Origin: a virus
Virus record (IMG/VR): IMGVR_UViG_3300027714_000001
Location: 42,180 to 106,179 of that record
Length of the DNA stretch: 64,000 bases
Strand: one strand, 5' to 3'
Every line of letters begins with the position of its first letter. Position 1 is the first letter of the stretch. The notes beneath the pieces are model-generated. The model was not told the origin of the DNA. It saw only the letters and a list, made by a program, of their open reading frames with translations, and searched no databases. A program made the position numbers and the translations under genes. Shown one piece after another: positions 7,941 to 8,777 of the stretch.

Positions 7941-8777
7941 ATTAAAGCAGGGCGGTTTAGCGTCCTTAAAATAACCCACTGAAAGGTGGAAAAGGTAACT
8001 TGTCAGGTTGCCGCTGTGTAGGCTCCGGTTTACAATAGTTTATCTAGACAAGCACAAGTTTCATTCCGTAAGAATGTCTTTGAGTCTAAAATCAGAGATA
8101 GCATTAAAAGGAACGAGCGTAGGTACTCCCGACAGGCGAGTATAGCGGCTAATAACCAAAAAGCCAAAATTAGACATGGGGACATATTTAAACCTGCAAT
8201 CCACTCTAGTACGAAATATGCAAAAACTAATGTGTAGTTGTTTCAGTCCGAGTAGTCATATAAGGGCAGGCAGCAGTAACAAAGAATTGTTTGTAAATAG
8301 ACAATCCTTAAAATACGGTGGAGTAGCGGGAACGCGAAAGACAATGTGGTGTGGAATATTTTGTAAGTCAAAAGCTTACGAACTCCTGACGGAACACATC
8401 GCAGACAACTAAATAACGCTATTGGTTAGCATTTGACTCTTAATCAAACTATCGGGTTCAATTCCCCATTAATCAAAAGTTTCCGTCGGTACGTTATCGA
8501 AAGATTGCTAATCCCTGACAATAATGAATCAGGGCATATAAAGGTCGAAAGCCTGCATATGTTTACAACGTAGATAAATTTAGTCTCTTAGCGGAGAGTA
8601 ACAGCCCTAAAGGTTGGAAGGAATCGAAATGTAGAGTAGATACGTATGACAGTCTTATATGCTTACAAGACTTTAAAGACAAGCGCAATCGGTGGGATAC
8701 TAGGGAGACCTAGTGGATACGCAGCTAACTCATATGGCTCGCAAAAGACCTGCTACTAGAAGCCTTAATCTCAGGCT
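7941..8777 (+). ncRNA. GOLLD-like giant ncRNA
   Basis: ~840 nt with no credible ORF, among tRNAs. GOLLD-type blocks recognised from memory: TTAAAATAACCCACTGAAAGGTGG, GACGGAAC/GTTTCCGTC pairing, GGATACTAGG-GAGA-CCTAGTGGATA, and 3' hairpin AGCCT-TAATCTC-AGGCT. Confidence 0.75.

Follow-up and report, generated by a model that had tools for sequence, protein, structure and literature searches.

The locus described here raises the question of whether a stretch of some 830 nt in the tRNA island of an uncultured marine phage encodes a GOLLD RNA, where that RNA begins and ends, and whether it would assemble like its structurally solved homologue. GOLLD RNA (Rfam RF02032) reportedly goes back to Weinberg et al. 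in 2009. It is among the largest bacterial and phage non-coding RNAs, and it builds an RNA-only cage yet has no known function. The DNA analysed, referred to as the window, is the right-hand 64 kb (42,180 to 106,179) of IMG/VR record IMGVR_UViG_3300027714_000001, a complete genome of 106,179 bp with direct terminal repeats from an uncultured phage. A sequence-only reading of the window had proposed a divergent GOLLD-like RNA of about 840 nt that starts at position 7941 and is flanked by tRNAs in a lytic, genetically tractable T5-like phage, and had suggested a cmsearch with the Rfam GOLLD model as a check.

The carrier is a T5-like and probably virulent marine phage, as judged from its portal and other structural proteins and from the lack of a tyrosine integrase. 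The portal shares 49% identity with the T5 portal across 99% of its length, and further matches to phage families come from the terminase, the head protease/capsid, and the major tail, tape-measure, and tail-tip proteins. The genome size (106 kb), the direct terminal repeats, and the tRNA cluster are likewise those of T5-like phages (Demerecviridae), and a tyrosine integrase (PF00589) is absent from the complete genome, which is consistent with the proposed lytic lifestyle. A megablast search of positions 30000 to 42000 (12 kb) against phage records gave no match and hence no close cultured relative for that segment. The label "genetically tractable" does not apply to this uncultured phage itself, but it does apply to the cultured T5-like phages of Vibrio crassostreae that carry the same GOLLD subtype.

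The GOLLD locus lies inside an island of 20 tRNAs on the plus strand (702 to 17044, ~17 kb), which is the textbook setting of the family. The tRNA flanks proposed earlier are therefore correct at the scale of the island but loose at close range; i.e., the nearest upstream gene, tRNA-Asn (5143 to 5219), is 2.7 kb away, and tRNA-Thr (9125 to 9202) follows downstream. Between the GOLLD locus and tRNA-Thr, and overlapping the start of the latter, a 77-amino-acid ORF (8906 to 9139, plus strand) has no Pfam match but resembles endonuclease VII/HNH-type phage nucleases in their C-terminal portion alone (phrog_1035, E 5e-7; phrog_26577, E 7e-12) and, by these matches, looks like a homing nuclease remnant. 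Elsewhere in the island, a tRNA with the anticodon CUA (15337 to 15411, plus strand; amber-suppressor type, "Pyl" in ARAGORN; 57.6 bits with the Rfam tRNA model) directly follows tRNA-Met. Beyond the island, a gene for a 591-amino-acid nicotinamide phosphoribosyltransferase (23988 to 25763, plus strand; phrog_448, E 5e-169) represents phage-encoded NAD salvage.

Identity, parts, and edges of the RNA

The whole window was scanned with Rfam 15, in which RF02032 has a curated gathering score of 150 bits. GOLLD is the only non-tRNA family matched (n = 1), with positions 8344 to 8777 on the plus strand aligning to model positions 1 to 416 of 416 at 175.2 bits (E 1.6e-47). The suggested check thus passes the curated cut-off over the entire model, and the GOLLD model score is significant, contrary to the outcome named beforehand as speaking against the family. 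"Divergent" is also a fair description, as the score is only modestly higher (~25 bits) than the cut-off. The alignment contains the signature strings UCAAAAG, CGAAAG, CUAAU, GAGUAG, GUGGAUA, CAAAAGAC, and the terminal UAAUCUCAG loop. This loop, which corresponds to L27, is located within the hairpin at 8762 to 8776, where the RNA had been proposed to end, and the entire conserved 3' region is present.

Because the part of the RNA modelled by RF02032 begins with the final hairpin of the 5' region and otherwise comprises the linker and the 3' domain, the 5' block was tested separately. A search with nhmmer using the 5' domain did not find any other GOLLD 5' domain (best E 0.024). On the other hand, a covariance model of positions 7948 to 8051 (R2) matches the GOLLDs of the L008 type, which are unrelated to that of the window, at 37.2 bits (E 2e-5), and the match starts 384 nt upstream of the Rfam start, compared with 396 nt in the window. 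A second model of positions 8237 to 8343 (R1) scores 39.3 bits on L016 and 26.1 bits on L008, with each match directly abutting the Rfam start. Since both models find unrelated GOLLDs at the expected offsets, the block at 7948 to 8343 is, as judged from these two segments, a GOLLD-type 5' block, i.e., a separate structured domain of ~400 nt. The earlier claim of GOLLD-type 5' and 3' blocks is confirmed.

The fold of the 5' domain is also visible in its substitutions. An alignment of eight sequences of this domain (A4) contains 19 helices, in which 93.2% of the cells pair and 49 of the 97 pairs show compensatory changes; sliding the partners left only 9 to 18 pairs with such a change, and none of 500 shuffles reached the observed values. 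Helices 17 and 18 of A4, which include compensatory changes, belong to the long hairpin at the start of the Rfam match. Both GOLLD domains are maintained by base-pair-preserving evolution.

The edges of the RNA were defined by pairwise alignment with its closest relative, a metagenome sequence (JQIA01015925.1, hereafter L040) that scores 158 bits with RF02032. The alignment has sharp edges and 80% identity over positions 7950 to 8802 of the window; values for the individual parts are given in Table 1. At the 5' end, identity rises from 31% to 80% at 7948 to 7950, and the 5'-block covariance model begins at 7948. The predicted RNA core is therefore 7948 to 8777, given these edges and the GOLLD-type 5' block; its length of ~830 nt roughly agrees with the ~840 nt proposed earlier, but the 5' edge is better placed at 7948 to 7950 than at 7941.

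Table 1. Positions of the GOLLD locus and its surroundings in the window, with identity to the closest relative, L040.
Feature	Position	Strand	Basis or remark	Identity to L040
Sigma-70-type promoter-like site, TTGACT-17-TATAAT	7600..7628	+	11/12 consensus; predicted start near 7635	
Leader hairpin, 27-nt stem, 89% complementary	7635..7780	+	Folding; arms 7635-7661 and 7754-7780	
Remaining leader, unconserved	7781..7947	+		31% (7880-7947)
GOLLD 5' domain, multi-helix fold	7948..8343	+	Alignments A1 and A4 with RNAalifold	80% (7948-8051); 60% (8052-8236); 67% (8237-8343)
Invariant GAAA-loop hairpin inside 5' domain	7975-7989	+		
Long hairpin, UCAAAAG loop, last before linker	8344..8404	+	Rfam model positions 1-62	92%
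Variable linker, 71 nt, tRNA-derived core	8405..8475	+	tRNA model; L040 comparison	70%
D arm	8418-8430	+	Linker fold	
Anticodon arm, loop CUCUUAA	8431-8449	+	Linker fold	
T arm, loop UUCAAUU	8453-8467	+	Linker fold	
GOLLD 3' domain, terminal hairpin 8762-8776	8476..8777	+	RF02032 alignment, model about 131-416	90.7% over 302 columns, gap-free
Small hairpin past 3' end, no U tract	8789..8802	+	Stem kept in L040 through base changes	50% (downstream of 8777)

All testable defining features of GOLLD, namely, the model score, the conserved 3' region, the 5' domain, the variable linker, and the phage setting, are found in 7948 to 8777. We are highly confident that this stretch, on the plus strand in the tRNA island of a T5-like phage, is a GOLLD RNA gene of ~830 nt with the two-domain architecture. 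It is an ordinary addition to a known family and nothing new in kind.

Promoter, leader, and competing readings of the locus

The promoter-like site in Table 1 is the only strong one and directly follows the upstream gene (7238 to 7591, DUF2528). L040 has identical hexamers with identical spacing at 2163 to 2191, about 300 nt upstream of its GOLLD core. As promoter-like sites overall are no commoner than in shuffled sequences, it is this conservation, and not their count, that supports the promoter. The leader between the promoter and the core (~320 nt) folds better than shuffled sequences (7630 to 7945, z -3.9), and L040 contains an equivalent long-stem leader (stem about 25 bp), in which the 5' arm is the same and the contents differ. 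In the Vibrio relatives, neither a promoter nor a leader hairpin was detected at the corresponding position, and the conservation of both is limited to L040. In D69, a Vibrio phage described below, a tRNA occupies the position of the leader, and the unit looks like promoter, tRNA, GOLLD, and terminator.

No intrinsic terminator was called downstream of GOLLD in the window, and the RNA is followed by the small hairpin at 8789 to 8802, which drew no terminator-like call, and then by tRNA-Thr; read-through into the downstream tRNAs therefore appears likely from the sequence. The small hairpin may be a processing or pause element. Long double-stranded stems are the kind of substrate cleaved by RNase III. 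We infer from the conserved promoter that the RNA would be transcribed from 7600 to 7628 as a longer precursor, and the unconserved leader suggests that this precursor would be trimmed to the conserved core, perhaps by cleavage at the long leader stem, which could serve as an RNase III-type processing site. L040 has two cassettes consisting of a promoter and a long-stem hairpin (1885 to 2160 and 2163 to 2383), in which the promoters and 5' arms are nearly identical and the inner sequence differs. The leader hairpin of the window (7635 to 7780) belongs to the same kind of cassette. Such units may serve as sites of RNase III processing or may give rise to small stable RNAs.

The same observations could be read differently; i.e., the functional RNA could be the whole transcript of ~1.14 kb (about 7635 to 8777), with the leader hairpin as part of an enlarged GOLLD particle. 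The position of the sole strong promoter-like site, the folding of the leader, and the presence of a promoter and long-stem leader at the same distance in L040 agree with this. Nevertheless, we regard it as improbable, because identity to L040 is 31% at 7880 to 7947 compared with 60 to 92% in the core, the contents of the two leaders differ, and the Vibrio relatives either lack such a hairpin or, in the case of D69, have a tRNA in its place. Moreover, the 5'-block model starts at 7948, unrelated GOLLDs begin at the equivalent point, and the solved GOLLD is only 833 nt long.

The core of ~830 nt could in turn be a decaying, non-functional GOLLD remnant that is carried along in the tRNA island. 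Its score exceeds the Rfam cut-off only by a modest margin, the tRNA-like element in its linker is degenerate, and a nuclease-gene remnant adjoins it. However, the 3' domain aligns to L040 without gaps at 91% identity, compared with only 31 to 50% in the flanks, the stems show compensatory substitutions, and all RF02032 model positions are matched. The relatives score about equally, so that a modest score characterizes the clade as a whole and does not indicate decay. Decay is thus a very unlikely explanation. A new class of large RNA that shares only a few motifs with GOLLD would accommodate the failure of nhmmer to find another GOLLD 5' domain convincingly, but poor conservation of the GOLLD 5' region has already been described (Kretsch et al., bioRxiv 10.1101/2024.12.08.627333), and this explanation is highly improbable in view of the full-length RF02032 match above the curated threshold and of the structure-aware models of two 5' sub-blocks, which match unrelated GOLLDs at the right offsets.

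The GOLLD stretch is non-protein-coding; that it encodes small proteins, as the short CDSs (30 to 60 amino acids, both strands) drawn over the homologous stretch in OZ196642, OZ195729, and other Vibrio phage records would have it, is scarcely credible, since the window's own ORFs of 37 to 78 amino acids have no Pfam match and no counterpart by position or strand in L040, the alignment of the 5' domain to L040 is interrupted by several short gaps, some of a single column, substitutions preserve base pairs, and the covariance model accounts for the whole stretch.

The linker and cage assembly

The linker of the GOLLD RNA in the window has three arms in tRNA order and no acceptor stem. With the tRNA model RF00005, it scores 19.8 bits (E 0.5; cut-off 29), and the corresponding element of L040 scores 37 bits (E 1.2e-6, model positions 6 to 65). 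At 8418 to 8467, there is no complete cloverleaf with an acceptor stem scoring at least 29 bits, and ARAGORN does not call a tRNA in the linker of either the window or L040. Compensatory changes between the two sequences are observed in both the D stem and the anticodon stem; taken alone, the linker folds with an energy no better than that of shuffled sequences. In local alignments with the 20 tRNAs of the phage, the core shows generic similarity only, and no donor was identified among them. By its sequence, the element is a tRNA-derived core and not a tRNA gene, and it cannot be charged or released as a tRNA because the acceptor stem is missing.

Linkers that vary in this way, sometimes with a tRNA, are a feature of the family, and linker tRNAs in GOLLDs have been noted in the literature. 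A tRNA-shaped element is located between the long hairpin and the 3' domain in L008, L029, L030, L032, and L016 as well. In contrast to the acceptor-less element of the window, these are recognized as complete cloverleaves by ARAGORN and Rfam alike, i.e., a tRNA(UCA) in the IMG/VR contigs L008, L029, L030, and L032 and a tRNA-Gln(UUG) in L016. The linkers of the Vibrio relatives are shorter and the T arm is absent. The GOLLDs of L008, L029, L030, and L032 score 202 bits, and their linker tRNA is 74 nt long with an anticodon of the opal-suppressor type; in L008, L030, and L032, a two-piece alphaproteobacterial-type tmRNA is located on the same phage contig at a distance of about 2 kb, and L029 is too short to show this. 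The linkers of the Vibrio phages D51, D260, D239, and D419 keep a hairpin (L002, 3100 to 3125) with the 7-nt loop CUGUUAA (U at 2, A at 6), which resembles an anticodon loop by eye, and the remainder of the tRNA shape is absent. The series from no tRNA shape through an acceptor-less core to a full tRNA could be used to test the idea that the interior of the cage is linked to tRNAs.

The marine GOLLD env-38 (833 nt) has been observed by cryo-EM as a protein-free cage of 14 subunits with D7 symmetry (Kretsch et al., bioRxiv 10.1101/2024.12.08.627333 / PMC12286853). Its 5' domains form the caps, its 3' domains form the ring, and L27 ties seven regions together; the linker is unresolved in the structure and points inwards (bioRxiv 10.1101/2024.12.08.627333). 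The RNA in the window, which is known from sequence alone, resembles env-38 and the family in the full-length model match, the two-domain layout, the variable linker, the length of ~830 nt, the terminal UAAUCUCAG loop, the marine phage origin, and the tRNA neighbourhood. It differs in scoring only ~25 bits above the cut-off, in having a 5' domain that only structure-aware models recognize, and in having a linker with an acceptor-less tRNA core in place of either nothing or a full tRNA. As the 3' domain is retained in full, together with L27 and a 5' domain that covaries, we consider it reasonably probable that the RNA in the window assembles in the same manner as env-38. By extrapolation from this one solved homologue, the mature RNA would form a closed protein-free cage of 14 subunits, and the linker, and hence the tRNA-like core, would face the interior. 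ROOL RNA (Rfam), which forms an octameric cage, is likewise a large ornate phage RNA near tRNA islands with its linker inside; however, it is unrelated to GOLLD in sequence and fold, and the Rfam scan of the window gave no ROOL match.

GOLLD rises during lysis and binds ribosomes in pull-downs. The cage might be pictured as acting on translation or the tRNA machinery during lytic growth; tRNA-shaped modules would then be kept in its interior, or host factors directed at tRNAs or ribosomes would be bound there. Such a role of GOLLD, tied to tRNAs or translation within the cage, is a tentative proposal that we hold to be rather doubtful, and this judgement is separate from our confidence in the identity and architecture of the RNA. 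According to a passage quoted in PMC7567579, GOLLD was dispensable for phage production in a Lactobacillus brevis prophage, the single system examined in the literature, so that any function it has may be conditional.

A Lys-specific decoy reading of the linker was considered and is weakened, as the anticodon is CUU in the window and CUC in L040; an unconserved anticodon argues against a decoy for any one tRNA species. The specific tRNA-decoy idea is further weakened because the core of the window falls below the tRNA threshold and is absent in the Vibrio relatives. A broader version, in which the acceptor-less core is no decayed tRNA but a selected tRNA-shaped bait inside the GOLLD cage that catches or distracts a host factor recognizing the tRNA elbow or anticodon arm, e.g., a tRNA-cutting defence nuclease or a modification enzyme, is unlikely as a whole. 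If it were true, the cultured T5-like Vibrio phages with the same GOLLD subtype would for the first time make the function of GOLLD directly accessible to experiment.

A GOLLD subtype in Vibrio phages

A blastn search of phage records with the GOLLD locus matched about 290 Vibrio phage records at 66 to 75% identity, 281 of which have no listed host and 9 of which are from V. crassostreae (D-series isolates from seawater and oysters). RF02032 passes in D51, D69, D239, D419, D260, and 70E37.6 with scores of 176 to 186 bits. These V. crassostreae phages, most of which are T5-like (70E37.6 = MW824426, D51, D260, D239, and D419), carry the same GOLLD subtype as the window; their 5' and 3' domains align over the full length with compensatory changes, and all are located in tRNA islands. 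They differ from the window in being only 66 to 70% identical, in having no long-stem leader, and in their shorter linkers that lack the T arm. The subtype is common to unrelated phages, as D69 (187 kb) carries it and has no T5-type portal.

A single metagenome scan with a clade-specific pattern found both L040 and a 54.6-kb marine contig (L041; RF02032, 169.7 bits). Two clade-specific patterns had no match in IMG/VR, and a scan of IMG/VR with a 16-base motif from the 3' end gave 27 loci, five of which are GOLLD by Rfam and none of which is close to the window; the other 22 are taken to be chance matches. In T5, Salmonella phage misterkot, Klebsiella phage Kpn24-P3, and Vibrio phage PVo5, the search for GOLLD gave no candidate, and GOLLD is present in the T5-like V. 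crassostreae phages 70E37.6 and D51; comparisons of paired phages with and without the RNA are thus possible inside one phage family. The literature searched contains no mention of GOLLD in T5-like Vibrio phages. A published survey applied the Rfam GOLLD model to every phage genome in GenBank as of March 2024, and 70E37.6 was probably among them. The additional value of the GOLLD in the window is modest and consists of the handle offered by cultured phages, the acceptor-less tRNA core, and a correction of annotation.

This correction concerns a coherent GOLLD subtype in T5-like and other marine Vibrio phages, over which the ~290 records annotate small hypothetical proteins. In OZ196642, OZ195729, OZ196063, OZ195672, and OZ195864 (L002 to L006), GOLLD is represented by three to eight such proteins on both strands, which are best read as mis-annotation and are worth correcting. 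In the record of D51, a 435-nt "tmRNA" feature is drawn over several tRNA genes and looks like an annotation error; both errors would recur in about 290 records.
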